A DNA stretch of 64,000 nucleotides, taken from assembly GCA_963700285.1 (NCBI GenBank), contig CAVOXA010000001.1:1440001-1504000 (forward strand). The letters run 5' to 3'. Made by a program: the position numbers and the translations under genes. The notes beneath the pieces were generated by a model. The model was not told where the DNA came from. It saw nothing but the letters and a program-made list of their open reading frames with translations, and did no database searches. This stretch comes from an uncultured Chloroflexia bacterium (lineage in GTDB: Bacteria; Chloroflexota; Anaerolineae; JAAYZQ01). Positions 1 through 39,982 of the stretch are shown in pieces (within the stretch, counting starts at the first letter, position 1; every line of letters starts with the position of its first letter).

Positions 1-3000
1 CCGCAGGAAATTGTCCGGATCGGGATAATCGGCTACCCAACCCCAGGTGAAAAGGCCTGGTGGCTCTCTATCCAGCCTGCCGGCATATGCGCCAAACTCA
101 ACCACCTCCTCCCTGACCTCTACGCCCAGTTCCTGCTGCCAAGCCTAGGCGCAAGTACTCGCTTGGCTCTTTTTGCACGGTGGCGAGCAGCGTCAAACAG
201 ACAACGGGAGGGAAGCCGCGACCGCCCGGATAGCCAGCCTCGGCGAGGAGTTTCCGCGCCTCGTCCGGGTCGTATGGGAGCGCGATGCCCGGCGAGTGCC
301 CGGCCATGTTTGGAGGTACGAACCCACCCGTCGCGGGGAAAACGGTACCGCCCAGGGCTACCCCTGACAGCGTCTCCCGGTCCATGGCCAGGACAAAGGC
401 CCGGCGCACCCGGACGTCGTCGAAAGGCGGCCGGCTCGTGTTGAAGGATAGATAGTGGGTGTGCAGCCAGGGCTCCGAGACAAACTCTTCAGGGTGCCGT
501 TGCCGGGTACGGTCCATGTCCGAGGTTGGCAACTCCCAAGGGTGGTAAACATCCAGGTCGCCGGCTTCATACGCCTCCAGTAGCGCTGGAGACGACTCTC
601 TGGAGAGAAGCAACGAGAGCTCCACCCGCTGCAGGTTGCCCGTCGAGCGTCCGTGGTACGCCGGATTGCGCACCAACACCATCAATTCAGCCGAGGGATG
701 GGCCTCCAAACGAAAAGGACCGTTGCTCACGAACTTGCCCACCTCCGTCCAGGACTCGCCGTGCGCCTCGATCGCGTGCCGGGGCGCGGGAAAGGTGGCA
801 GTGCAGTGACAAGCAACTGGAGGAAATGGCCTGTTGGTTCTTCTAGCTCCACCTCCAGGGTGAGGTCGTTCAGGGCGCGGACACCCAACTGATCCGGTTG
901 GGATGACTTTGCCCTGATGGAAGGTTCTGGCACCCCAAACGTCGTACAACAACTCGGCATTGGGTGACCCGGTCGCCGGATCCAGCACCCGCTTCCAGGC
1001 GTACTCAAAGTCTCTGGCGGTCACCGGCACCCCATCGCTCCAGTACACGTCATCCCGTAAGTGAAAGAGGTAGCGCCTCCCGCCGTCGGATACTTCCCAG
1101 CTCTGGGCCACATCGGGTGCGATGTCCAGATTTGGGTTCTCCGTGAGCAGCCCGCTAAAAAGCTGCTCGTGGATCCAGCCGCCAGCAATGGTAGCCTCCA
1201 TGGCCGGATCCAGGCCATGGCCCCTGTACCAGGCCATCCGGAGGGCGTCGGACGCGGGGGACGACGGGATGTCCGGCGCTGTTTCCACTGCCTGTTGCCA
1301 GAGGGCAAAGCCTTCGTCATGGGCCTGGCGCGACTGCTGGAACTGGAAGGCATTGTGGTAGGCCAGCCCCAGCTTCATCAGCGTCCGGGCCGCTTGTTCG
1401 TCGTTGCCCTGTTCCTTGAGGAGGACCAGAGCGCGTTCGTAGGCATGGATCGCCTCCTGGTGGGCGTACAACCCCCGCGCCCGGTCTCCGGCCTGCACCA
1501 GGTAGTCGACAGCCTCTTGCGTTCGCCCGGCCAGCGCCAGGTGGTCGGCGATCAGGCCGGTGTACTCCTCGACCCGCTCACCGGCCTGCTCCAGCAACCA
1601 GTCGGCCACCAGCCCGTGATAGGCCCGCCGTACCCGCTTCAAGCACGCTTTCGTAGGTTACCTCGCGCAGCAGGGCATGCTTGAAGAGGTACTCCCGGGC
1701 ATCGGCAAAGGCCGAGGTCTCCCGTTGGAAGACCATCTCCCGGCCCCGCAGGGCCGCGAGGCGGTCCATGACCCCGGCTCTGCCGATCCCCTCCTCCGCC
1801 GACGCGTTGATGCGGGCCACGGCCCGATCCCAGAAGAGCCGTCCTACCACCGACGCCTGCTGCAATACCGTCCGTTCCTCCGGCGGCAGGCGGTCCAACC
1901 GGGCCTGGAGGACACCGGTCAGCGTCGGCGGCACGTGCACACCGGCCAGCCGAGAGGGGACCACCTGCCATTGCTCCTCCCCCTTGACGATCACACCATC
2001 CTCGACCAGCATCTTGACCAGTTCTTCGATGAAGAAGGGGTTGCCCTCGGCGCCGGCCACGATCGAGGTCGCGGAGCGTATCGGGCACCTGGTGAACCCG
2101 CTGCAGGATCTCGGCCACCAGCCGCCGGCTGTCCCACTTGGACAGCGGTTCCAGCGCCAGGCGTCGGTGAAAGCCCTGTCCCTCGCCCCAGTGGGGCCGC
2201 CGCTCAAAGAGCTCTGGGCGCGCGGCACCAACGATCATCAGCGGTTGCTCGCATAGGGCAAGCGCCAGGTGGTTGAGGGCATCCAGCGAGCTGTCGTCAG
2301 CCCAGTGCAGGTCCTCCAAGAGGATCAGCAGAGGAAACTGCCGCGCCATAGCCTGAAAATAGCCGGCCAGATGGGCCAGGGCCTGGTCGCGCAACTGTTG
2401 AGGATCGTCCCGCATCTCTGCCAGGTGGGGGCTGTCCCCCAGCTCAAAACCGACGAGGTGCCCGATCAGGTACGCTCGCAGGGCAACTTGCGGCTCCCAG
2501 GTCCCTGTCTTTGTCCCCGCCCAGCGCCGCTCCAACGCCCTCTTCCAGCTTTTCCCGGACACCGGCGGCTGTGTCGCTGTCCTGGATCTGGAAACGGAAG
2601 GCGATCAGGTCCCGGATCAGGCCGTAGGGCTGGTTCTGCATCTCGGCCGAGGCCCGCCCCTTGAAGTAGTAGAACTGCTCCGGCAGCAGCTCGGCCCAGA
2701 CGTCGAACTCGTGCAGCAGGCGCGACTTGCCCACCCCCGCCTCGCCGCTGATCGTGACCACCTGTAGCTCACGATCCTCTACGGTCGTGTAGAAGGCTTC
2801 CTGCAGGTGCTTCAGCTCCGCTTCGCGGCCCATCATGCGGGTCTCGATGCCCTCCACGCCACGGCCGGGTCGGCGAAACGCTCGCGGCTTGGCCCGCTGG
2901 ACCAGGTAGGTCTGTACCGGCTCGGCCTTGCCCTTGACGGCCAGCGGTTCCTGGGCCAGCACGTCAAACACCCCCTGCACGTGGCGGTAGGTGTCATGGC

Positions 3001-3715
3001 TGATCAGGATGCCGCCCGGTGGCGCGTTCTGCTCCATCCGCGCGGCCAGGTTGATGGCGTCGCCCATGGCCGTGTACTCGACCCGCAGGTCCGAGCCCAC
3101 CTCGCCGACCACGACCAGCCCGGTGTTGATGCCGACCCGTACATTGAAGCCGGTGATGCCCCGCTCCCGCTCCAGGCGTGCGGCATACTCCTGACTCCCT
3201 GAAATGATGTCCAGGGCTGCCCGGCAAGCCCGCTCCGGGTCGTCCTCGTGGGCGATCGGCGCCCCAAAGAAGGCCAGCACCGCGTCGCCCATCAGGCGCG
3301 CCAGCGTGCCCTCGTAGCGGTAGACCGGCTCGATGAGCACGTCAAAGGCCCCGTCCATGATCTCCAGCCAGTCCTCTGGGTCCAGTTCCTCTGCCAGTGC
3401 CGTCGAGCCCTTGACGTCGGAGAAGAGGATGGTCACGGTTCGGCGCTCGTGTCCCACCTGACCGCGGGTGGCCAGCAACCGCTCGGCGTACTCTGCGGGC
3501 ACCAGGCGCCGGAGCCGCTCTAGCGCGCTTTCTGTCGGGGGTGTCGGGCGCGTGACCGAATGAGCCTTTACCTCCATCCCGCAGGCAAAACAGAACCTGG
3601 CTTCCGAGGGCAACTCGGTTTTACACTCCGGACATGCCAGAGCAAGTCCGACGCCGCAGCTCAGGCAGAATCTGGCACGCTCGGGGTTTTTGGTACCACA
3701 TTGGGGACAGTTCAT
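1..3715 (-). CDS. Double zinc ribbon + class III adenylate/guanylate cyclase + AAA/STAND ATPase + TPR + family-5 ABC solute-binding domain fusion; frameshifted, 3' end runs off the window
   Basis: ORFs 2444-3715, 1639-2562, 1578-2231, 98-1642 and 727-1008 join into one protein: CPQC..CLSC..CPEC..CFAC; TILFSDVKGST, MGDAVLAFFG, GDAINLAARME; Walker A GEAGVGKS; LLILLEDLHWAD; GNPFFIEE; FKHALLREVTY; TPR helices; then WSDGVPVTARDF, SNGPFRL, PPFDDVRVRRA. WVADYPDPDNFL reads in bases 1-45. Confidence 0.88.
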
Positions 3716-14976: not shown

Positions 14977-15177
14977 CTAGGCCGGATCCAACTCGAACTG
15001 CCAGTCTTTTTCCCAGTTGTCGTCAACCAGGTTGGAGCTCCAGTCGAGTTCTGGGGGGCTAGTCCTGACAACCTCCAGATCAGCATAACAGCGCTGGCAG
15101 AGGGCTGCCTGCCCTACCCAGGGCTTGCGCCCAAGATCAATACGGTTTCCGCAATCCGGACAGTACGCGATAGCCAC
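14977..15177 (-). CDS. LysW-like zinc-ribbon small acidic protein
   Basis: GTG start after AGGAG; CPDC...CQRC, ADLEVV, ELDW, acidic tail. Confidence 0.7.
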   Translation of the reverse strand: MAIAYCPDCGNRIDLGRKPWVGQAALCQRCYADLEVVRTSPPELDWSSNLVDDNWEKDWQFELDPA

Positions 15178-15350: not shown

Positions 15351-15551
15351 CTACCAGTCCTCGTCGTCGTCCCCCGAGGCATAGTCCCCATCTTCATCGG
15401 ACCAGTCGTAGGCCCAGTCAAACTCTAACGGCTTGACGCTAATCACTTCCAGGTCCGCTTCGCAACCAGGACACGTTAGCTTCTGGCCAAGCCTCGCGTG
15501 GGGGTTCAAGGTGATCTTTTGCTCACATTCGGGGCAATATCCACTTTCCAT
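15351..15551 (-). CDS. LysW-like zinc-ribbon small acidic protein
   Basis: CPEC...CPGC, ADLEVIS..PLEFDW, tail DDDEDW; AGGAG ribosome-binding site. Confidence 0.8.
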   Translation of the reverse strand: MESGYCPECEQKITLNPHARLGQKLTCPGCEADLEVISVKPLEFDWAYDWSDEDGDYASGDDDEDW

Positions 15552-26726: not shown

Positions 26727-26921
26727 ATGGCAAGCGAACTGAGGCTTTTCACGGCCAAGGAGGCAGCGGCATATCTGCGGGTCAGCCCTTTCACCCTGCG
26801 CAAGATGGAAGAAATGGGCATGATCGTGCCTTATCGCACTCCCGGGGGACACCGACGCTATAGCCTGGACATGCTAAACGAGTATCTGGAGGAAAGCCGC
26901 GTCTTTCCGTCATCCCAGTAG
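26727..26921 (+). CDS. BldC/excisionase-like MerR-superfamily HTH protein, copy 1
   Basis: FTAKEAAAYLRVSPFTLRK..RTPGGHRRY; strong AGGAGG ribosome-binding site. Confidence 0.85.
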   Translation: MASELRLFTAKEAAAYLRVSPFTLRKMEEMGMIVPYRTPGGHRRYSLDMLNEYLEESRVFPSSQ

Positions 26922-27574: not shown

Positions 27575-27769
27575 ATGGCAATAGAGGTTAGGCTCTTGAC
27601 GGCCAAGGAAGCGGCCGACTACTTGCGGGTCAGCCCTTTCACGCTGCGCAAAATGGAGCGCATGGGCATGCTGGTACCGTACCGCACGCCAGGCGGCCAC
27701 CGGCGCTATAGCCTGGACATGCTGAACGAATATCTTGAAAACAGCCGCGTCCAGCCCTATCTGGTGTAG
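27575..27769 (+). CDS. BldC/excisionase-like MerR-superfamily HTH protein, copy 2
   Basis: 53 of 64 aa identical to copy 1 by manual count; same RTPGGHRRY motif. Confidence 0.85.
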   Translation: MAIEVRLLTAKEAADYLRVSPFTLRKMERMGMLVPYRTPGGHRRYSLDMLNEYLENSRVQPYLV

Positions 27770-27930: not shown

Positions 27931-29194
27931 CTAGTTGCGGCCCTCCTGGCCAGCGGTCAGCCTCCGACCCAGGAACAACCCTGCAGCCGCGAGCCCGACA
28001 CCGCCCACGACGAGGATCCAAGCACTGTTGAGAGGCGTGCCACCCGTCTGCGGTACGTTTTCTGGTGCCGCGCCGGCAGAAGCGACCTGCCCTTCCAAGG
28101 AGGTCACACCTGTGAACAGGACCAACTCGCCAGAGCCAGGGGCGCCGACGCCGTTGGTCGTGACGTAGGCGTCACCTGCCGTCGTAAAGTCGATGGAGGT
28201 CGGGAATGACAAGCCACTGAGTACGGCTTCAGAAGCGCCCCCCTCCTTGATGCGGAGGATGGCGCCGCTGTTGGGGACGGGGCCCTGTTCAGTAAACTGG
28301 CCCATCTGCACGGCGTACAGCTGCCCATCAGGACCACTGCGCAAGTCGGTGATCATTGTCAACCCGGTCGCATAATCGCTGACCTGGCCATCGGCCGTCA
28401 CCTTTACCACCTTGGCTGAACCAGGCAGGAAGGGAAAGCCTGGCAGCAGCGAGACGTACATGTTGCCATCCCCGTCAAAGGCTACCGCAGTGGGCACCGG
28501 GTCCGTCTCCATAGCGCCGCCCCGTTCTGGATTGGGGAAGGGCCCTGGCAACCCGCCAAAGACGGCTACCAGATCCACCTGACCACTGCTGGGATCCACT
28601 TTGAGGAGCGTATTCCCACCAGCGTCAGCCACATACAGGCTTTCGTCCGGTCCGGCCGTGATGCCGTAGGGGTGCGAGTCCAGGATATTGGGGTCCGGGT
28701 TCTGCGCCTTCTCCAGCTCCCATAGTTCTGGCTACCTCGGTTGCCGCGCCGTCCTCGATCTTGACCACGGCGGCAGTGTTGGGCAGCGCCTCGTCGCTGA
28801 CAACCCCCAACCAGATGCCGCTTGTGGCATATACTGTGCCGTCCAGCAGCGCCAGGCGGGCGCCGCCGGTTGCCTCCTGGCCGACCAGGATCGAAGGCAA
28901 CGACGCGGCGACGGTCTGACTGCCATCGCTGGCAATCACGACCACGCGTGCCGAATCACCGATCTTGGCCGTGACCTCTTCCCCCGTCTCAGGATTCACA
29001 AAGGGGATATCGTCTTCGCCGCCAACGCCCGAGTCGATGACCCACACGCTTCCATCGGCGGCGACCAGTACACCCTGGGGGGCGTTGAACCCCCCGGCTA
29101 TCGTTGTGCCCCCGCCTTGGGCGCCAGCCACACTGGCCACCAAAAGGACCAGAACCAGCGCCAACCCTGTTACAGAAATTGTCTTCTTGCTCAT
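27931..29194 (-). CDS. ScyD/ScyE family beta-propeller protein with C-terminal sortase-like VPQTG-TM-RR tail (frameshifted at about 28630-28730)
   Basis: Signal peptide; ADAGGNTLLKV, DPVPTAVAFDGDGNMYVSLLPGFPF, TDLRSGPDGQLY, GLSFPTSI; VPQTGG + hydrophobic helix + GRR. Confidence 0.85.
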
Positions 29195-30052: not shown

Positions 30053-30346
30053 TCAGGCGTGCTCGTGACGGATGACCTTTCCGTCGCGCCACTCAGGATC
30101 GGCCTGGAGAAGTTGCCTCATCTTGAGGTACAGTTCGTGGCTTTCGGCAGATTCCGAATATGCCCGGTAGGCTTCCTGGCTCTCGGAGATGGCCACGACC
30201 CAGATCTCGTTGGGGTCGGCGTCCATCTGGAAGACAGACAGGGAAACCGCGCCACCCGGACTATGCCCTCCATCCATATCCATCATTTCGCTCAGTTCCT
30301 CCAACCTGCCTGGCCTAACCTTCATGCTAGCGATGCTGCCGTACAT
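30053..30346 (-). CDS. Antibiotic biosynthesis monooxygenase (ABM)-like dimeric alpha/beta barrel protein
   Basis: MKVRPG..., VAISESQEAYRAYSES, PEWRDG; 97 aa with GGGAGG ribosome-binding site. Confidence 0.7.
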   Translation of the reverse strand: MYGSIASMKVRPGRLEELSEMMDMDGGHSPGGAVSLSVFQMDADPNEIWVVAISESQEAYRAYSESAESHELYLKMRQLLQADPEWRDGKVIRHEHA

Positions 30347-30488: not shown

Positions 30489-30896
30489 TCATAGACACCT
30501 GCACAGCAGGTCTAACAGCTTGGCTGTGCCCCATGCCTCACGAATCCGGCCGCCGGAGAAACGCATTACTACAGCGCCCTTTGTCGTCCCCCCCTCATGT
30601 CTGGCAAGATGGCTCTTGGTCGAGCCGGGGAGGCAGCCCTCGATCGCGTACCGGACCGCGACCTTGTCCCCGGTGGCGTACATCTCTTCAATGGTAAGGC
30701 GTTCGTAGGGGAAGCCTGCGACGGCGGTACTGATCCAGTGCTTGTACCGGCTTCGGCCGGAGGTGATCCCGAGTTGGGTGCCATGCTCGACAAAATCGTC
30801 GGCGTACAGGCTGTCGACAACATCCAGATTGCCATGGTTCCAGACTTCATGGAGCGCTTGTTGGGCGCTTTGCCTATTGGTTTCAAGCGTAGACAT
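30489..30896 (-). CDS. SnoaL-like ester cyclase family protein
   Basis: EVWNHGNLDVVDSLYADDFVEH, AGFP, GDKVAVRY, RFSGGRIREAW. Confidence 0.8.
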   Translation of the reverse strand: MSTLETNRQSAQQALHEVWNHGNLDVVDSLYADDFVEHGTQLGITSGRSRYKHWISTAVAGFPYERLTIEEMYATGDKVAVRYAIEGCLPGSTKSHLARHEGGTTKGAVVMRFSGGRIREAWGTAKLLDLLCRCL

Positions 30897-30986
30897 GGGG
30901 TTGGCCTCCCTTCTTGTATCTCTTTCGGCTGACAGCAAGGGTAAATAACGTAATAGAGATTATTTATATCATGTCTAGCAGTCTGA

Positions 30987-31022
30987 ATTCTATCAGTTCA
31001 GTGCATACAAAATGCATACAGC
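30987..31022 (-). promoter_or_regulatory. Promoter with 11-bp-spaced direct repeats (ester cyclase gene)
   Basis: Minus strand cTGTATGCAt-TTTGTATGCA...; 14 nt from TTTGT to TAGAAT. Confidence 0.7.
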
Positions 31023-31037
31023 CAGGCCTGAACGAAA

Positions 31038-31069
31038 GAGGCTCCACCTCTTCGAAGAGGTGGAGCCTC
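31038..31069 (-). terminator. Intrinsic terminator
   Basis: GAGGCTCCACCTCT-tcga-AGAGGTGGAGCCTC followed by TTTCGTT on the minus strand. Confidence 0.8.
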
Positions 31070-31090
31070 GCTACTGCATTTTACCCTTTC

Positions 31091-31339
31091 TCAGCAGCAC
31101 TGTTCTTTGGGCGTGGGTGGCCTGGTAATCCAGGATCGAGCTGCGGCCTTTGTTCTCCCGGCTGAGGCTGCCAGCTGACTGAGCCCAGCCCGGATCTGGG
31201 CCAGCCGGCTGTCCACTAGCGCGAGTTCCGAACCGCCATGTCGCAGGTGTTTTGCCTGGTTTGCCTGCTCCGCTTCCTTGAGCCACTGGTTCGGGACCAT
31301 ATTGTTCTCGTAAGCAACCATGAACCATTCATCGTACAT
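31091..31339 (-). CDS. Small hypothetical protein (82 aa, ends EQCC)
   Basis: AAAGGAG ribosome-binding site before ATG 31339; helical WLKEAEQANQAKHL segment; terminator directly downstream. Confidence 0.68.
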   Translation of the reverse strand: MYDEWFMVAYENNMVPNQWLKEAEQANQAKHLRHGGSELALVDSRLAQIRAGLSQLAASAGRTKAAARSWITRPPTPKEQCC

Positions 31340-31535
31340 CGTTGATCTCTCCTTTGACCGAAGGCCAATTCCTGCGCACAAAATGACACGTTCGCAGAAG
31401 GGAGGCTTCGGTAGTCAAACAAAAGGGACTTCTGTCTTGACTTAGAAAGCTGCGCTAGCCTGTGGCCAACCCACTGGGCAGCGCAAAGCGAGCAATTCTT
31501 GTGGGCCGGCCAAACGCTGCCCTTTGAGATCGAGA

Positions 31536-31574
31536 CAAGTGCCGGATGAGGGCGTCGCCCTCATCCAGCACTTG
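31536..31574 (-). terminator. Stem-loop downstream of the NPELK-repeat gene
   Basis: CAAGTGCcGGATGAGGGCG-t-CGCCCTCATCCaGCACTTG; weak U tract. Confidence 0.6.
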
Positions 31575-31591
31575 CTTGGCTGCGTAGTTAC

Positions 31592-32143
31592 CTAGCAGCC
31601 ACAGTATTGCTCAAATGCGGACAGTTCCGGGTTCACGGAGCCTTCGCCCGAGTTTGCCACTGCCGCTGAACTACCTTCCCAGCCGCTGGCGTACTTTGCC
31701 TCAGGGTTCTCGGCATAGAAGTCAGAGCCTGCTGCTGCCGAGCCACCGCTCCAATTGCTTGCGTACTTTAGCTCGGGATTCTGGACCAAAAAGTCCGACG
31801 CCACTGCTGCTGAGCCGCTGAAGGACTTTAGCTCAGGATTCGTTGCCAACTCTGCGGCATTCTGGGCAACTACCACGCTGTTCCCTTGGCCATAAAAGCC
31901 GGCCAGGGCTTCGTACCGGCTGGTACCGGCTGCATAGCTGGCCTCGAGCCTCTGGGCTGTATAGTACTGCCCCAAGGCTGCCAGCCGGGCGGAGCCGGCG
32001 TCAATGCCGTTTGAGGCACCCCCGTTGTCGGCTGATACTGGCAGGATCACCAGCACCAGAAGGAGTGCCGTCGTCAATACGACCAATTGGGTCTTTGCCA
32101 TACGTTTCTGCTTGCCAGATCTGGATGTGAAAAAGCTTGTCAT
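31592..32143 (-). CDS. Secreted protein with NPEL/NPEA repeats, ends YCGC
   Basis: GGAGGAG ribosome-binding site; signal peptide ...LLLVLVILPVSA; four NPE(L/A) repeats. Confidence 0.8.
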   Translation of the reverse strand: MTSFFTSRSGKQKRMAKTQLVVLTTALLLVLVILPVSADNGGASNGIDAGSARLAALGQYYTAQRLEASYAAGTSRYEALAGFYGQGNSVVVAQNAAELATNPELKSFSGSAAVASDFLVQNPELKYASNWSGGSAAAGSDFYAENPEAKYASGWEGSSAAVANSGEGSVNPELSAFEQYCGC

Positions 32144-32206
32144 CTTCTCTCCTCCGTTCTACCTCGTTAGATTGATTTGACTGAATCTGTTCTGAACCAC
32201 GATTGC

Positions 32207-32253
32207 AGTGTAGCACACGGATGTGCACAAACTCACTACAAAACGCGTACAAA
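32207..32253 (-). promoter_or_regulatory. Promoter with three 11-bp-spaced TTTGT boxes
   Basis: Plus-strand ACAAA at 32227, 32238 and 32249; 14 nt to TACACT (32207-32212), TG-extended. Confidence 0.75.
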
Positions 32254-32376
32254 GCAGTGGTGGGCAAAAATACTGCAAGGAAACGCTGCTATCCCCAGGC
32301 AACAGCAGCGCAGAGTCAGAGTGCTGGCGATACCGGTCGCGACCGGCCATGCCTGGCCAGAGATTGGCCAAGAAGA

Positions 32377-32640
32377 TCAGACGCACCGGCCTGCGGAGAA
32401 TAGGTGCGCGTCTTCCCCGCGCAGGATCGACCGCACTAACTCGTAGTGCGCCAACCGTTCGGCTAGCACGACCCGGCGATAGTCCAACTCGCACAACAGC
32501 CAGTTAGCCCGGCGAGCATACCAGCGTGGTTGCGATCGCCTGATCTCCTGGATTATCTTTTGGTATGCGTTCTCACGCATGATATCTTTGACAAGAGCCT
32601 CGTGTTCTGTACGTACGGTTTGAGCATCCCTAGGAATCAT
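32377..32640 (-). CDS. Small protein, paralogue 3 of the CE(L/M)D family
   Basis: LLCELDYRRVVLAERLAHYELVRSILRGE...GRCV; GAGGAG ribosome-binding site. Confidence 0.78.
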   Translation of the reverse strand: MIPRDAQTVRTEHEALVKDIMRENAYQKIIQEIRRSQPRWYARRANWLLCELDYRRVVLAERLAHYELVRSILRGEDAHLFSAGRCV

Positions 32641-32688
32641 GATGAGTCTCCTCTGTATTCTGTCAGTTTCCTGGCACTGCAACCAGTA

Positions 32689-32943
32689 TTAGCTACAGTG
32701 CCCGGAGGAATACTTGCTCGCCTCGTCTGCATGAAGGATGGACTGTACCAAGTCGTAGCGTTCCAACCTTTGGGCGAGCACTACTCGATGATGGTCCAGC
32801 TCGCACAGCAATCGGTCAAGCTGATGCAACAGCCATCGCCGCTGCCCATGCCGCCTGATCACTCGCGTCTGCTTCGGCAGCATGGCCTCCTGGAGGCGCA
32901 GGTGGTAGAGCGATTCTTCCACTTGATAGTCTGGATGTAGCAT
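32689..32943 (-). CDS. Small protein, paralogue 2 of the CE(L/M)D family
   Basis: LLCELDHHRVVLAQRLERYDLVQSILHADE...GHCS; GAGG ribosome-binding site. Confidence 0.78.
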   Translation of the reverse strand: MLHPDYQVEESLYHLRLQEAMLPKQTRVIRRHGQRRWLLHQLDRLLCELDHHRVVLAQRLERYDLVQSILHADEASKYSSGHCS

Positions 32944-33027
32944 TGTCCTCACTCCATTGCCTGTTTCTGCTATCTTGTCTGCGGATGCGATCTCCCTCGC
33001 GAGACAGCAACCTTAGCTCGGAATGAG

Positions 33028-33063
33028 AACCTACCATGAGAGTGCCTACGGATTGCATACAAA
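33028..33063 (-). promoter_or_regulatory. Promoter with 11-bp-spaced repeats (paralogues 2 and 3)
   Basis: Minus strand TTTGTATGCAa-TCCGTAGGCA...; 14 nt from TCCGT to TAGGTT, TG-extended. Confidence 0.6.
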
Positions 33064-33108
33064 GCCGCATGCTGGCGACGCAAATGTGCATTGCCAGCAT
33101 GCGGCTTT
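33061..33108 (-). terminator. Intrinsic terminator after paralogue 1
   Basis: AAAGCCGCATGCTGGC...GCCAGCATGCGGCTTT, a 16-bp inverted repeat. Confidence 0.75.
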
Positions 33109-33136
33109 GGTACTCCTGCCGGATGACGTAATTCGA

Positions 33137-33403
33137 CTACCTACACTGACTCGTGGAGAAAAAGCTCGTTTCGCCAGCGCGCAGGATGGACTGCGCCATG
33201 TCAAATCGTTCCAGCCGCTGGGCGAGGGCCAAGCGCTGATAGTCCATCTCACAGCGCAGTCGATCCGCGTACTTGGAAAGCCGGCTCTCTTGCCTCTGTC
33301 CTTGGCTTGCTGCACGCCTCAATCGATGGGCGTCCAGGTCGCTCACGGTGTCTTGCTCATGCCTGGCCAGGATTGCTTCACCAGCGCCAAAGTCGATATA
33401 CAT
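33137..33403 (-). CDS. Small protein, paralogue 1 of the CE(L/M)D family
   Basis: LRCEMDYQRLALAQRLERFDMAQSILRAGE...SQCR; GGGAGG ribosome-binding site. Confidence 0.78.
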   Translation of the reverse strand: MYIDFGAGEAILARHEQDTVSDLDAHRLRRAASQGQRQESRLSKYADRLRCEMDYQRLALAQRLERFDMAQSILRAGETSFFSTSQCR

Positions 33404-33489
33404 GTTGTGCCTCCCTTCGAAGCGTCAGCCAAAATGCTTGGGTTGCTGTCAAGGGAAATCCGGCAGCCTTCCCCTCACCCTTGCAGCAT

Positions 33490-33568
33490 ATTGTACCGGA
33501 GCAGGGATTACAAAGTGTTTACAATGCAGGCGCTTGAAGGGGGAGTGTTGTATGCAGAGATGCATACA
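33490..33568 (-). promoter_or_regulatory. Promoter with 11-bp-spaced TTGTAA repeats plus an upstream palindrome
   Basis: Minus strand ATTGTAAacacTTTGTAA; 14 nt from TTTGT to TACAAT; TGTATGCA-gaga-TGCATACA at 33549-33568. Confidence 0.7.
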
Positions 33569-33640
33569 GGGAGAAGAGCCAACGGTCATTCTGTGCCCAG
33601 ATTTTGGGCCTGGCTTGACCGCCGGAAGGAGAGACGGGGG

Positions 33641-36600
33641 TCAAACGTCCAGTTTTTTCAGCACCTGGCTGGCCAATCGCTGGTCGTACGCGGCCCCCGT
33701 TGCCTGAGCCAACGCCAGTGCTTGGTGGGCGTAGGAGACAGCCTCGGCACGGTCGCCGGCGATGTCGTAGGCTTGGGCCAATCCTGACAACAGCCAGCTC
33801 TGCTCCGTGCAGGAGCCGATCTCCTGAGCCAGCGCCAAGCCCGCTTGCAGGTGTTGTATTGCCTCCGACGGGTGCTCCAGGCGTACGTTCAACCAACCCA
33901 GGTGCGTGTGGCACAGGATCTCCTGGGTGCGGTCCGCCGCCCCGCGGGCTATGGAGAGACTCTCTTCCAGAGATATCCGCGCCAGTGCCACGTCACCCAT
34001 GGCCCCGGCCGCAGCACCCATATCCCCAAGGGGCAGGCGCCGCTCCAGGTGCAGGCCGGCGGCCTCGCACCGCTCCAGAGCTTGTTGGGCCAGGTCCATT
34101 GCTTGCCTGCAATCATTTTCGTACCAGGAGAGGGTGGCCAGATTGCCCAGGGTATGAATCTCGTGGACGGTCTCGCCCAGCTCGATAAACTGTCCCAGCG
34201 CTTGCTCTAGATCTTCCCTGGCCAGGTCATAGTCGCCCAGGGCCCGCGCTGCGAGGCCGGACTCGCGCCGGCACATCGCCTCCAGCAGGCGATCCTCTGC
34301 TTCCAGGCTCAGCCGAATGCCGTCCACAGCGCTGGTCCGAGCGTCGGAGAAGCGGCAGAACCAACGGTGGCCGTAGGCTTCCCGCCACCGAAGGTGGGCC
34401 ATGGTCTGTGAGTCGCCCAGAGACGCGGCCAGACGAGCCACCGCTTCCGCATCTTGGGCGTAGGCCTCCATGTCGCCGAGCAGGCGCAGTGCCCAGCCTC
34501 GCTCGTACAGTGCTTCGACCCGGAGTCGCTGGTTGGCGGTCACAGCCTCCGGCCCTTCGAGGTCAACGGCTTCCCACTCCAACAGTTCCAGCGCCTTGTC
34601 AAAGTAGGCGCGCGCTTCGATGTGGGCAAAGACCTGCTTGGCTGTCCGGCCAGCCTGCAGAGCATAGGGTGCCGCTCGACCGGGCTGACCTGCACGCTCG
34701 AAATGTCGGGCCAGTGCCCCTGCATTGGCAGGGTCCAGCCGCTCCAGCGCTTCTCCTGCCCGCCGGTGCAATACTTCTCTGCGCTGGCGACTCAACTGCT
34801 GGTATACAGCCGTCCGGATCATCTCGTGGCGGAACCAATACCCGGTGGCCCCCTCCTCCACCAGGTTCCGTGCCACCACTTCATCAAGGCTGTCCACAGT
34901 CTCCATCTCACCTCTCCCGGACGTTTGACGTGCCAGCGCGAAACTGAAAGACCTGCCCAGGACTGCGCCAGATTCCAGTACCTGCCGAGCTCTGGGGCTG
35001 AGGCGCGCCACCCGTTCCTTGACGGCATCTAGGACGCTGTCGGGAAGGCATAGGGAATCAGCATCCACTAGCTCCTCTGGCTTGCATCCGGCCTCCATGA
35101 GCGACCGTACTGTCTCCAGGAGGAAGAAGGGATTGCCACCGGTGGCCTGTACGAGGCTGCGGACCAGATTCTGGTCACAAGGCAGAATGGCTTCAAGGGG
35201 CTTGAGCAGCTTCTGGATCTCGGCTTCGTTGAGCCCTGTGAGTGGCAGTTCAGTCAGCATGCCCTCTCGGGCCAAGCCCTGGCGCAGATTGAGGACGGTA
35301 TCAGCTTCTTCGCTGCGATAGGTTCCCAGGATCAGCAGCCTGGGGCGGGCTGCATGGGCCAGTTGCCTGCCCACGTAGACCAGCCAATCCAAGGTTGTTC
35401 CGCCAGCCCAGTGGAGGTCATCCAAGCAAAGGAGGACTGGTTGCGGGCCAGCTGCCAGGGCCAACAGGATCTGGTACAGCGCCTCAAATAGCGTAGCCTG
35501 TTCCGAACTGGCCATCGCTGTGGGCGGCATTTCAGGGTGCATGTGGCGCAGTTCAGGTATCAAGCGGCACACCTCGGCGTGACACCAGTCGGCAACCTCC
35601 AACCGATCATGGCGGGTCAGGAGCGCAGGCCGCAATGCCTCTGCCAGTGGCTGATAGGGACTCGATTGCGTGTCTGGATAGGCTGCGCCTACCAGTACCA
35701 GTGCCTCCTCACCCAGGCCCGCAGCAAATTCCTGCATCAACCGCGACTTGCCGATGCCGGGCTCGCCCGAGATGAGGAGAATTCCTCCCTGGCTCTCTCG
35801 GGTGAGGGCAAAAGCATCCTCCATCTGCCGAAGCGACTCGCCTCTCCCGACCAGCTCCACGTCGAGTCCTGGATGCGTGGTCCAGGTCACTTCTACAATG
35901 GGCTTGTGCTCCGCGTCGGGCCAGGGGGCCAGCCTGGGCTGAGGTGCTGGCGCCGCCTCCCCAAGCGGCCCATAGCTTGCCAGAGCAGCCTGGTAAGCCG
36001 CATGGGTCTCTGGAAGTGGCTCTACGCCCAGTTCGTTCTCCAAGATCGTGATGCAGTGGTTATACTGGCGTAGTGCCCCGCTGCGGTCTCCCACGGCCAC
36101 GTATAGTTCGATCACCCGACGATGAATGTCCTCGGCCAGATCGTCGGTTTCCAGATACTTTTGGGCGTAGGCAAGGGCTGAGTCATAGTTGCCTTCAGCA
36201 ATTCCATAGTCGATTAAAGCCGTGAGGGCTTCCAGGTAGACCCGCTCGCAGCTCTCACGTTCCACTGTCATCCAGCTCTCATACTCTGGACCATCAGGCA
36301 TTGAGAACCCGTGGAGGAACGGTCCCCGGTAGTGAGCTACGGCTTGCTGGAGTGCCGCCTGGGGCGCCGCCGAGGGTTGGCTGGCGCACAGACGCTCAAA
36401 GGCTACAAGATCTGACCATGACTGCCGGGGATCCAGTCCGATGTGATCCTCCTGCACGACCAGGACCTCCGGATCGGGCAGATCTCGCCGAAGGTGAGCG
36501 AGCAGGCCAGAAAGCTTGCGACGGGCGGTAAGCTCGGGAACGTCAGGCCAAAATAGAAAAGCCAGGTACTCACGGGGGATGGTGTCTCTCGAAGCTGCTA

Positions 36601-36730
36601 GCCGGAATAGCAGGGCGCGTACCTGGCGGCGCGAGATGGACAGGCGCCGACCTGCCCATTTCGTCGCGGGTGCTCCCAGCAAATAGACCTGCAGAATGGC
36701 TTTGGTATCTACAGTGGGCTTATCGATCAT
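33641..36730 (-). CDS. BTAD/SARP-family transcriptional regulator with AAA/STAND ATPase and TPR domains
   Basis: LQVYLLGAP, REYLAFLFWPD, YRGPFLHG, EDIHRRVIELY, ELGVEPLPET (BTAD); GEPGIGKS; LDDLHWA; GGNPFFLLE; FRHEMIR; TPR C-terminus. Confidence 0.93.
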   Translation of the reverse strand: MIDKPTVDTKAILQVYLLGAPATKWAGRRLSISRRQVRALLFRLAASRDTIPREYLAFLFWPDVPELTARRKLSGLLAHLRRDLPDPEVLVVQEDHIGLDPRQSWSDLVAFERLCASQPSAAPQAALQQAVAHYRGPFLHGFSMPDGPEYESWMTVERESCERVYLEALTALIDYGIAEGNYDSALAYAQKYLETDDLAEDIHRRVIELYVAVGDRSGALRQYNHCITILENELGVEPLPETHAAYQAALASYGPLGEAAPAPQPRLAPWPDAEHKPIVEVTWTTHPGLDVELVGRGESLRQMEDAFALTRESQGGILLISGEPGIGKSRLMQEFAAGLGEEALVLVGAAYPDTQSSPYQPLAEALRPALLTRHDRLEVADWCHAEVCRLIPELRHMHPEMPPTAMASSEQATLFEALYQILLALAAGPQPVLLCLDDLHWAGGTTLDWLVYVGRQLAHAARPRLLILGTYRSEEADTVLNLRQGLAREGMLTELPLTGLNEAEIQKLLKPLEAILPCDQNLVRSLVQATGGNPFFLLETVRSLMEAGCKPEELVDADSLCLPDSVLDAVKERVARLSPRARQVLESGAVLGRSFSFALARQTSGRGEMETVDSLDEVVARNLVEEGATGYWFRHEMIRTAVYQQLSRQRREVLHRRAGEALERLDPANAGALARHFERAGQPGRAAPYALQAGRTAKQVFAHIEARAYFDKALELLEWEAVDLEGPEAVTANQRLRVEALYERGWALRLLGDMEAYAQDAEAVARLAASLGDSQTMAHLRWREAYGHRWFCRFSDARTSAVDGIRLSLEAEDRLLEAMCRRESGLAARALGDYDLAREDLEQALGQFIELGETVHEIHTLGNLATLSWYENDCRQAMDLAQQALERCEAAGLHLERRLPLGDMGAAAGAMGDVALARISLEESLSIARGAADRTQEILCHTHLGWLNVRLEHPSEAIQHLQAGLALAQEIGSCTEQSWLLSGLAQAYDIAGDRAEAVSYAHQALALAQATGAAYDQRLASQVLKKLDV

Positions 36731-38907: not shown

Positions 38908-39982
38908 TCAGTCCTGGGGTATGATTTGTCCTTCCGGGGAAACGCCTCGGACTCTGTCGACGCCAGCATACGCGATGGCCGCAAACGTGGCCTCCAGTTT
39001 TTGGCCAGGCCCCAGCACGTGGGCTGAGCCATCCTGGACAGCCTGAGCCACCGTGGGTTGCACGGTGCTAAAGGGCTCCAGGGCTATGTTGTAGGTCCGC
39101 CCGTACCAGGGGGCAGTGTAGGCGCCGCCATAGACCTGCCAGAACCAAAGTGCTGGAAAGACTTCCAGTGGCCAAGCCATGGCGAAACCGACCTGGCGTC
39201 GGGTGTTGGTCACAGCATACCAGCCCTCCTGCAACTGGTCCAGGAACAGGGTATCCGAGGTATCCGCTTCCGCGGAGGCTACGTCGCGCAGGTCAATGAC
39301 GCCCCCATCTCGTCCGGGGATCATGGGCCAGTCGTGGATGCCGGCCGCAAATCGGGTGTTTGACGTCAGGCTGGTGCAATGGACCCGCGCGCCTGGAAGG
39401 TCGATCCTGCAGGTCTCATCAACAAAAGGGGCGCCCAGGGCCGGGTGCTGGCCCCACATCAGATTCTATGGGAACCCGGCCTTCATTGACAATCAGCTCT
39501 TCAATCTTGAGCACTGCCCGGTCTCGTTCTAGCGACAGCGTCTTCTCTACGTAGAGGGGAGTACGGTAAGTGCGTACCCAGAGCTGGATCGCCACGCAAT
39601 CGGGAGTGTCTTTGACGATGCGGTACTCCCAGGGGATGGTTGGTGTCTCGCCATGGGCGCCAAAGGGCAACCCTTGGTACTCCCCGGGGTTGCCGCCCGA
39701 GGGCAGGCAGTCCTGCCAGCCCCCCTCGTAGTAGTCCAGGAAGGCGCTGGCCCGATGGTGGTCGGTGGCCACAAACCGCGCCGGGTCGCGCACGCCCCAT
39801 GGCGATCGCCACAGAAAGTCTACGTCTAGCGGCTTGTACAGGAACTCAAAGATATCGCTGCCCTTGTCCGCCAGAACGCTAATGCGCAGTAGTTCGTTTT
39901 CCAACGCGATGGTGCGCAAGCCCTTGTATACGTACTCGGTCAGGCGGCAGCCGTAGTTCCGTTCGTGCGTGTAATAGATCAA
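38908..39982 (-). CDS. Aldose 1-epimerase-like/DUF4432 galactose mutarotase-fold protein (frameshift near 39460)
   Basis: LENELLRISVLADKGSDI, YEGGWQDCLP, HGE, MWGQHP, LWFWQVYGG, ALEPFS. Confidence 0.82.

Follow-up and report, generated by a model that had tools for sequence, protein, structure and literature searches.

A SARP-type regulator and its candidate paired-repeat promoter box, with a set of small cysteine-tailed proteins, in an uncultured Chloroflexia bacterium

We analysed a 64,000-nt stretch of DNA (the window) from contig C1 of the 7.05-Mb genome of an uncultured Chloroflexia bacterium (GenBank assembly GCA_963700285.1, contig CAVOXA010000001.1, positions 1,440,001 to 1,504,000), in which a gene for a large SARP-type activator is followed by six small genes, g1 to g6. 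It is likely, in our view, that this regulator binds paired direct repeats at the promoters of the small genes and thereby activates a lineage-specific set of small proteins whose cysteine tails would serve thiol chemistry. The regulatory part of this explanation, which draws on the analogy with AfsR of Streptomyces, is very probably correct, and comparative data from other genomes make the link between the repeats and the regulator well supported. Positions given without a contig or locus name refer to the window.

Results

A large SARP-type activator and four matching promoters

The regulator gene (33641..36730, minus strand) encodes a protein of 1029 aa, assigned by Pfam matches, a motif check and a profile alignment. 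Its N-terminus combines an OmpR-like winged helix with a BTAD domain (residues 107-248; PF03704 at 77 bits), which is followed in the Pfam scan by an AAA_16 STAND NTPase (residues 292-462), with Walker A and Walker B both intact, and by C-terminal tetratricopeptide repeats (TPRs). A profile of the N-terminal domain matched AfsR (8hvr, E 5.5e-21) and EmbR (2FEZ, E 2.5e-18) over the whole length of the domain; the profile was required for this, as a PDB search with the single domain sequence returned designed TPRs only. The alignment places Gly75 of the regulator on AfsR T88 and His79 on AfsR R92, two residues that contact bases in the AfsR structure (PMC10936776; PMC11301090). The NCBIfam AfsR model NF053617, with a cut-off of 1430, gave only 47.1 bits. 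Judged by its sequence, the protein has the architecture of an AfsR-type large SARP yet is no AfsR orthologue. We dropped the idea of a Cys-rich sensor, as the six Cys in the last 300 residues fall within the clade range of 1-12. In a genome of the same genus (G001) the orthologue (L031:11372-14212) is frameshifted within the TPR part, for which sequencing error and loss are both possible.

Boxes of 11-bp direct repeats precede g1, g2, g4 and g6, all on the minus strand: box 1 (33502..33523) lies ahead of the -10 hexamer TACAAT (33495-33490), box 2 (33040..33061) ahead of TAGGTT (33033-33028), box 3 (32219..32251) ahead of TACACT (32212-32207) and box 4 (30999..31020) ahead of TAGAAT (30992-30987). 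Each box holds two repeats, or three before g4, of a TGTAGVCA-like sequence, and the last repeat begins 17 nt ahead of a TAnnnT hexamer, which carries a TGn extension at three of the four promoters (boxes 2, 3 and 4). If the -10 hexamer is placed at -12, the repeats occupy about -40 to -19, positions that are predictions since the start sites are deduced from the hexamer. The afs box similarly consists of two 11-bp repeats at -40..-19 (PMC10936776). A first-pass annotation, made from the letters of this DNA alone, had proposed four units with one promoter architecture, and the matching boxes confirm this; it had also stated that SARP/BTAD activators bind direct repeats near -35, and such repeats are indeed present, but they appear to replace the -35 element rather than merely adjoin it. 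A sigma-70 consensus scan recovered none of the four promoters. Ahead of box 1, at 33549..33556 on the plus strand, the half-site recurs in inverted orientation; this copy is kept in two relatives and is a possible accessory operator.

All four promoters fit the loose pattern YGTR-N7-YGTR-N13-TAnnnT, and four of its 18 matches in the genome fall within this 2.5 kb. A tighter pattern, tuned with sites already in view, gave eight matches at the true spacing, all of them intergenic, as against zero or one at each of 53 other spacings.

The locus is further divided by hairpins on the minus strand. Strong ones follow g1 (33060..33109, abutting box 2; z-score -6.6), lie between g4 and g5 (31536..31574; z -6.0; largely absent in the metagenome locus L137) and, in terminator-like form, follow g5 (31038..31069; z -3.9), while a weaker terminator-like hairpin follows g3 (32284..32307; z -1.8 for the surrounding region). 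The proposed splitting of the genes into separate units by hairpins holds for three strong structures and one weaker one, but not strictly, as an RNA contig was seen to span the g4-g5 hairpin.

The box accompanies a clade of related regulators

Relatives of the regulator were first chosen on protein similarity alone. Among those with at least 48% identity in the SARP domain, 8 of the 10 non-self regulators are followed by a box at a distance of no more than about 2.5 kb (one of the eight points back at the regulator gene); of the two without a box, one is on a short contig and the other has a truncated frame. No box accompanies any of four regulators at 44-45% identity, three of them limited by their contigs, or any of 19 below 40%. 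The host genome has 11 BTAD matches, and its other scored BTAD genes, at most 39% identical, have no box either.

A scan of GTDB with a consensus built from six relatives yielded 65 loci, five of them training sites, and 63 of the 65 titled as Chloroflexota groups. The 60 non-training loci comprise 28 in which a related regulator gene immediately precedes the box in the same orientation, seven with a regulator nearby but otherwise arranged, eight with short flanks and 17 with none in long flanks. When 14 genomes were reached via loci lacking an upstream clade regulator, 11 were found to hold one with a fitting residue, although two of these had been counted already and three carry both His and Arg regulators, which leaves them little discriminating power.

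The residue equivalent to AfsR T88 agrees with the sequence of the box. Where it is His, both repeats have C at position 6 in 19 of 20 cases, and where it is Arg, box position 6 is A or G in all nine, counts that leave out a few proteins taken up in the Discussion. In the Gly lineage, box positions 5-6 are relaxed. The same reader head is found on varied NTPase and sensor parts, and frames of roughly 290-300 aa carry it as well. Seven exact boxes (L089, L096, L097, L102, L107, L119, L124) come from a single Chloroflexia genome, whose best clade regulator lies in a 289-aa frame, a small SARP without the NTPase. In the literature, where subscription journals were poorly covered, we found no report of the box, of these Chloroflexota regulators or of the small proteins.

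The genes behind the box change from lineage to lineage. The block recurs, with its boxes kept, in G001 (without g2) and in L137 (without g2 and g3). Elsewhere the first gene behind the box encodes an ABM, GYD, DUF3303, SCO4226-like, SRPBCC, glyoxalase, NmrA or BON protein, or else a secreted protein or an unnamed one of 70 aa (31 proteins were scanned in one set). The idea of the regulator and the small genes as one conserved, undescribed system is thus not supported: beyond the genus and its near relatives from metagenomes, regulators of this clade and their box stand ahead of unrelated genes.

An unnamed protein of roughly 70 aa (alignment A5, no Pfam match) adjoins BTAD regulators and was found at 16 of the 65 box loci, L032, L033, L035, L036, L041, L042, L046, L049, L050 and L138 included. 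In the host genome, a BTAD gene is found no more than about 2 kb from each of its six matches (coordinates include C14:195880-196098, C22:175445-175960, C10:1779637-1779912, C10:1244382-1244696 and C1:1177272-1177511), and the window regulator has no such protein beside its gene.

The small genes and their relatives

Domain and open reading frame (ORF) checks found the 1029-aa BTAD-AAA-TPR gene and six same-strand small genes downstream of it, as had been claimed. The first, g1 (33137..33403; like all those that follow, on the minus strand), encodes 88 aa with a central and a penultimate Cys and is backed by its ORF, RNA contigs and the ratio of nonsynonymous to synonymous substitution rates (dN/dS). 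By alignment, g2 (32689..32943, 84 aa; missing at this locus in G001 and L137) and g3 (32377..32640, 87 aa) are its paralogues, at 28-42% identity; g3 has no box of its own, and with a gap of 48 nt and a single box ahead of both, it is likely co-transcribed with g2. The 183-aa product of g4 (31592..32143) is predicted to be a secreted repeat protein; its C-terminus is CxC, and it has a hydrophobic N-terminus read by eye as a signal peptide and NPE[LA] repeats. The 82-aa product of g5 (31091..31339) ends in CC, and that of g6 (30489..30896) is SnoaL-like by sequence (PF07366, 70.5 bits against a cut-off of 28.4), with a conserved CxCx tail. An ABM-fold gene, g7 (30053..30346; PF03992), lies beyond the span first annotated, encodes no Cys tail and is possibly transcribed with g6. 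Three paralogues, a secreted repeat protein (secretion being a prediction) and a SnoaL-like protein were thus rightly described; g5, taken at first for an orphan, has homologues, among them a paralogue on contig C14.

No match above cut-off was obtained for g1-g5 in Pfam or NCBIfam, and a protein atlas gave no usable match for g4 and, for g2, nothing beyond unnamed clusters at 0.85-0.86. AlphaFold models g1 as one helix (predicted TM score 0.38). A g1-g3 profile matched a broader, unnamed helical family of Anaerolineae type (alignment A4; hhalign 97.9%, E 4.6e-13), and the A4 profile pulled out g1-g3 among 13,397 small ORFs, a test only partly independent because most A4 members first came from the g1-g3 profile. 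Database searches found 28 proteins of the g1 type, and strong matches were found in two of 401 class genomes and two of 23 order genomes, the host included in both. We rejected the view of the g1 type as a widespread family, with weak matches in only 12 other class genomes of the 401 and two others among 301 phylum genomes, few candidates being scored per genome. The searches found seven close homologues and one distant homologue of g4, and 13 matches for g5; a kinship of g5 with the broader g1 family was dropped for lack of an alignment (1.5%), and selenocysteine read-through was ruled out by mixed stop codons. A further tandem triplet of the broader helical family, without Cys tails, lies at C22:295831-296762. 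Two secreted-type repeat proteins (L002:6290-7129 and L003:5286-5765), with no box upstream, each have one of the two repeat types of g4.

The small genes are real. Purifying selection is evident from dN/dS of 0.16-0.56 for g1, g3, g4, g5 and g6, and the proposed expression check is answered by RNA: 14 sediment metatranscriptomes hold part of the stretch, runs X5-X14 at shares of 0.05-0.15, and in the four examined in detail, each of the six genes is partly covered by near-identical contigs, with cover of g1 in three of these runs. Two of the three g1 contigs end inside the hairpin at 33060-33109. Among the contigs listed, a neighbouring 19.9-kb control shows nothing but scattered fragments, none longer than 216 nt. 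The regulator gene is almost bare of contigs, and no listed contig crosses a box; such holes carry no evidential weight. Because the runs were selected for holding the stretch and the contigs lack strand, level and start, they support transcription only.

Terminal cysteines and distant boxes

All six proteins have a Cys within their last three residues, which bears out their description as Cys-tailed, and g1-g5 have exactly two Cys each. The tail is retained in 26 of 28 g1-type, 7 of 7 close g4-type, 11 of 13 g5-type and 3 of 3 g6 proteins, as against a genome baseline of 3-4% (from our own gene calls, in an assembly that seems to contain frameshifts). None of six other members of the broader family in the host genome has a Cys tail, and the Cys-tailed set was found only in the host genus and close metagenomic relatives. 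The excess of Cys tails across four unrelated families is beyond chance, though it was noticed post hoc.

The regulon is not purely local, as had been assumed: with the tight pattern, five boxes were found elsewhere in the genome. One, on C14, precedes a paralogue of g1 followed by a paralogue of g5, and another, on C1, a predicted secreted repeat protein (C1:101098-101586) whose C-terminus is CxxC. A third, on C5 and kept in G001, precedes a 105-aa protein that is ThiS/MoaD-like by eye and has no Pfam match, and two on C10 precede proteins of 109 and 49 aa, both with hydrophobic N-termini. The pair on C14 (C14:1031885-1032609, L001), a second g1+g5 pair with its own box, also has an inverted half-site in a similar position; the 14 kb examined there revealed no clade regulator.

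Other features of the window

An adenylate-cyclase/AAA_16 protein with a downstream SBP_bac_5 part (98-3577) is seemingly split by frameshifts, as are genes at 27931-29194 and 38908-39982 that are intact in G001 or L137 and likely reflect assembly errors. Two tandem pairs of small genes were also seen, one encoding near-identical HTH_17/MerR-like proteins of 64 aa (26727-26921 and 27575-27769; G001 has one there), the other a LysW-like zinc ribbon (14977-15177 and 15351-15551).

Discussion

Our comparisons lead to a rough proposal for the control of the small genes. By analogy with AfsR, the NTPase and TPR parts would hold the regulator inactive through auto-inhibition, and binding of ATP or a ligand would release it. 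We infer that a pair of regulators would then bind two 11-bp repeats at the four adjacent promoters and at about five distant ones, where region 4 of sigma could dock on the SARP dimer, which would substitute for the -35 element, and polymerase would be recruited as it is by AfsR. We suggest, tentatively, that the output may be a stress or envelope response; the Cys tails would then capture metals or electrophiles, or would form cross-links between the secreted members. In the original proposal of a signal-activated regulator driving a small-protein module, the connection of box and regulator, which rests on comparative evidence, and the reality of the genes have held up; a conserved system and a purely local scope have not.

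Several observations weigh against this reading. A close regulator with a truncated frame (L040) has no box, one His regulator has an A/C box, and the count of residues and bases omits three Gly proteins and two Arg proteins of 34% identity beside C/C boxes; since the latter two sit in genomes with a His regulator, they may be targets themselves. On the tree, the agreement reduces to only four independent pairs, all concordant (p=0.125), and the search of 14 genomes found no clade regulator in G692, G699 or G700, one of which is a Melainabacteria record. The loose pattern shows no enrichment genome-wide (18 matches against 3-19 at other spacings), nor does a four-site weight matrix at low thresholds show a clear one (17 against 1-18), and the tight pattern, which was tuned after seeing sites that it counts, misses box 3. 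In three studies the g1 RNA contigs break off at 33431, some 50 nt downstream of where transcription is predicted to begin. As to the tails, some of the matches come from closely related sequences and are hence non-independent, three of the five distant box genes encode none, and cargo in other genomes is at baseline (2 of 54 first genes end in Cys). With such cargo at baseline and the distant genes mostly tail-less, it is conservation that backs the thiol role.

The alternative that fares best, which we nevertheless think somewhat unlikely, accepts that the regulator reads the box but treats the genes behind it as an opportunistic, lineage-specific collection whose Cys tails have no shared function. 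Free turnover of cargo between genomes would fit it, as would the coming and going of g2 and g3 among three relatives, and a pattern spotted post hoc and mostly missing from the distant box genes is what it would predict. However, four unrelated families, together with the distant protein at C1:101098-101586, are tailed where the baseline is 3-4%, the Cys is retained even though the last residue varies, and the six members of the broader family elsewhere in the genome are tail-less.

It is less likely still that g1-g3 are regulatory small proteins, an AfsS-like relay or a feedback modulator acting on the activator or on RNA polymerase, and no stress effectors. The position of g1 as the first gene behind the regulator recalls afsS, a direct target of AfsR (PMC10936776), several members of the broader family adjoin response regulators or helix-turn-helix genes, and g1 is predicted to be a single helix; yet no likeness to a named family emerged from Pfam, NCBIfam or the atlas, and most clade regulators have no g1-type neighbour. 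More speculative, and in our estimate improbable, is a convergence of unrelated proteins (helical small proteins, secreted repeat proteins and a SnoaL fold) on a C-terminal Cys tag (Cx, CC, CxC, CxxC) for one shared treatment, which could be lipid attachment, cross-linking in a surface or dormancy layer, or metal loading. The genes would then make up a dedicated programme, actively transcribed and controlled by a SARP with targets that can be told from one helix residue.

That another factor, a BTAD paralogue or an alternative sigma, reads the box and the adjacent regulator is incidental seems very unlikely. There are 11 BTAD matches in the genome to choose from, 17 of the 60 GTDB sites lack such a regulator in long flanks, and the regulator gene is scarce in the RNA contigs, but the box lies directly behind clade regulators, agrees with a residue of their reading helix and is absent beside distant paralogues. 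A peptide or natural-product cluster, with g1-g3 as precursors and the SnoaL and ABM proteins as tailoring enzymes, would suit the usual role of SARPs in biosynthetic clusters (PMC10936776), the presence of both folds and the short Cys-bearing paralogues, but is highly improbable, as no maturation enzyme (no radical SAM, YcaO, lanthipeptide or export family) was recognised among 34 proteins scanned out of the roughly 60 called in the window, the g1 type is conserved mainly in its C-terminal half without a hypervariable core, TOMM and HaaT NCBIfam matches fall far under cut-off, and SnoaL- or ABM-like singletons are common cargo of the clade.

The preferred reading, in which the regulator drives the small genes through the box, would supply a defined operator, and a specificity rule based on one residue, for an uncharacterised clade of SARP-STAND regulators found across Chloroflexota, where regulatory genetics is little developed. 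It makes the sigma-adaptation model of AfsR directly testable outside Actinomycetota, along with binding and the prediction of regulons. The analysis also brings to light small genes that lacked annotation, are under selection and turn up in RNA libraries from sediment.

The basic design is already known, and it is the shared Cys tail that is the unexplained part. AfsR has an NTPase of the NB-ARC type, and MalT carries a C-terminal LuxR helix-turn-helix. What had been taken for an undescribed design matches the described AfsR-afsS type of Streptomyces coelicolor (8HVR, 8K60, 8JKE; PMC10936776, PMC11301090), which has the same order of SARP, nucleotide-binding domain and TPRs, 11-bp direct repeats at -40..-19 that overlap -35, a T at repeat position 3 and a base-reading helix that aligns residue by residue. 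It differs in that the repeat sequence here is distinct, most sites here have a TGn-extended -10, and the targets here are unnamed small proteins in a Chloroflexota host. The SARP-LAL regulators PimR, SanG and PolR, a likeness drawn from descriptions rather than from sequences, combine a SARP with an ATP-binding half whose relatives are guanylate cyclases and LAL regulators, and they use two or three repeats of 11-bp period along with secondary operators (PMC5930380). The PimR operator, CGGCAAG, is clear of -35, whereas the box here is TGTAGVCA-like and did not fit that heptamer, and PimR-type targets are antibiotic-cluster genes; the operators of SanG and PolR do overlap -35 (PMC5930380). EmbR of Mycobacterium tuberculosis (2FEZ) has the same SARP domain with an FHA domain in place of the STAND-TPR part. 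Finally, the STAND activators MalT and GutR, cited as a model for AfsR (PMC10936776), are switched by inducer and ATP.

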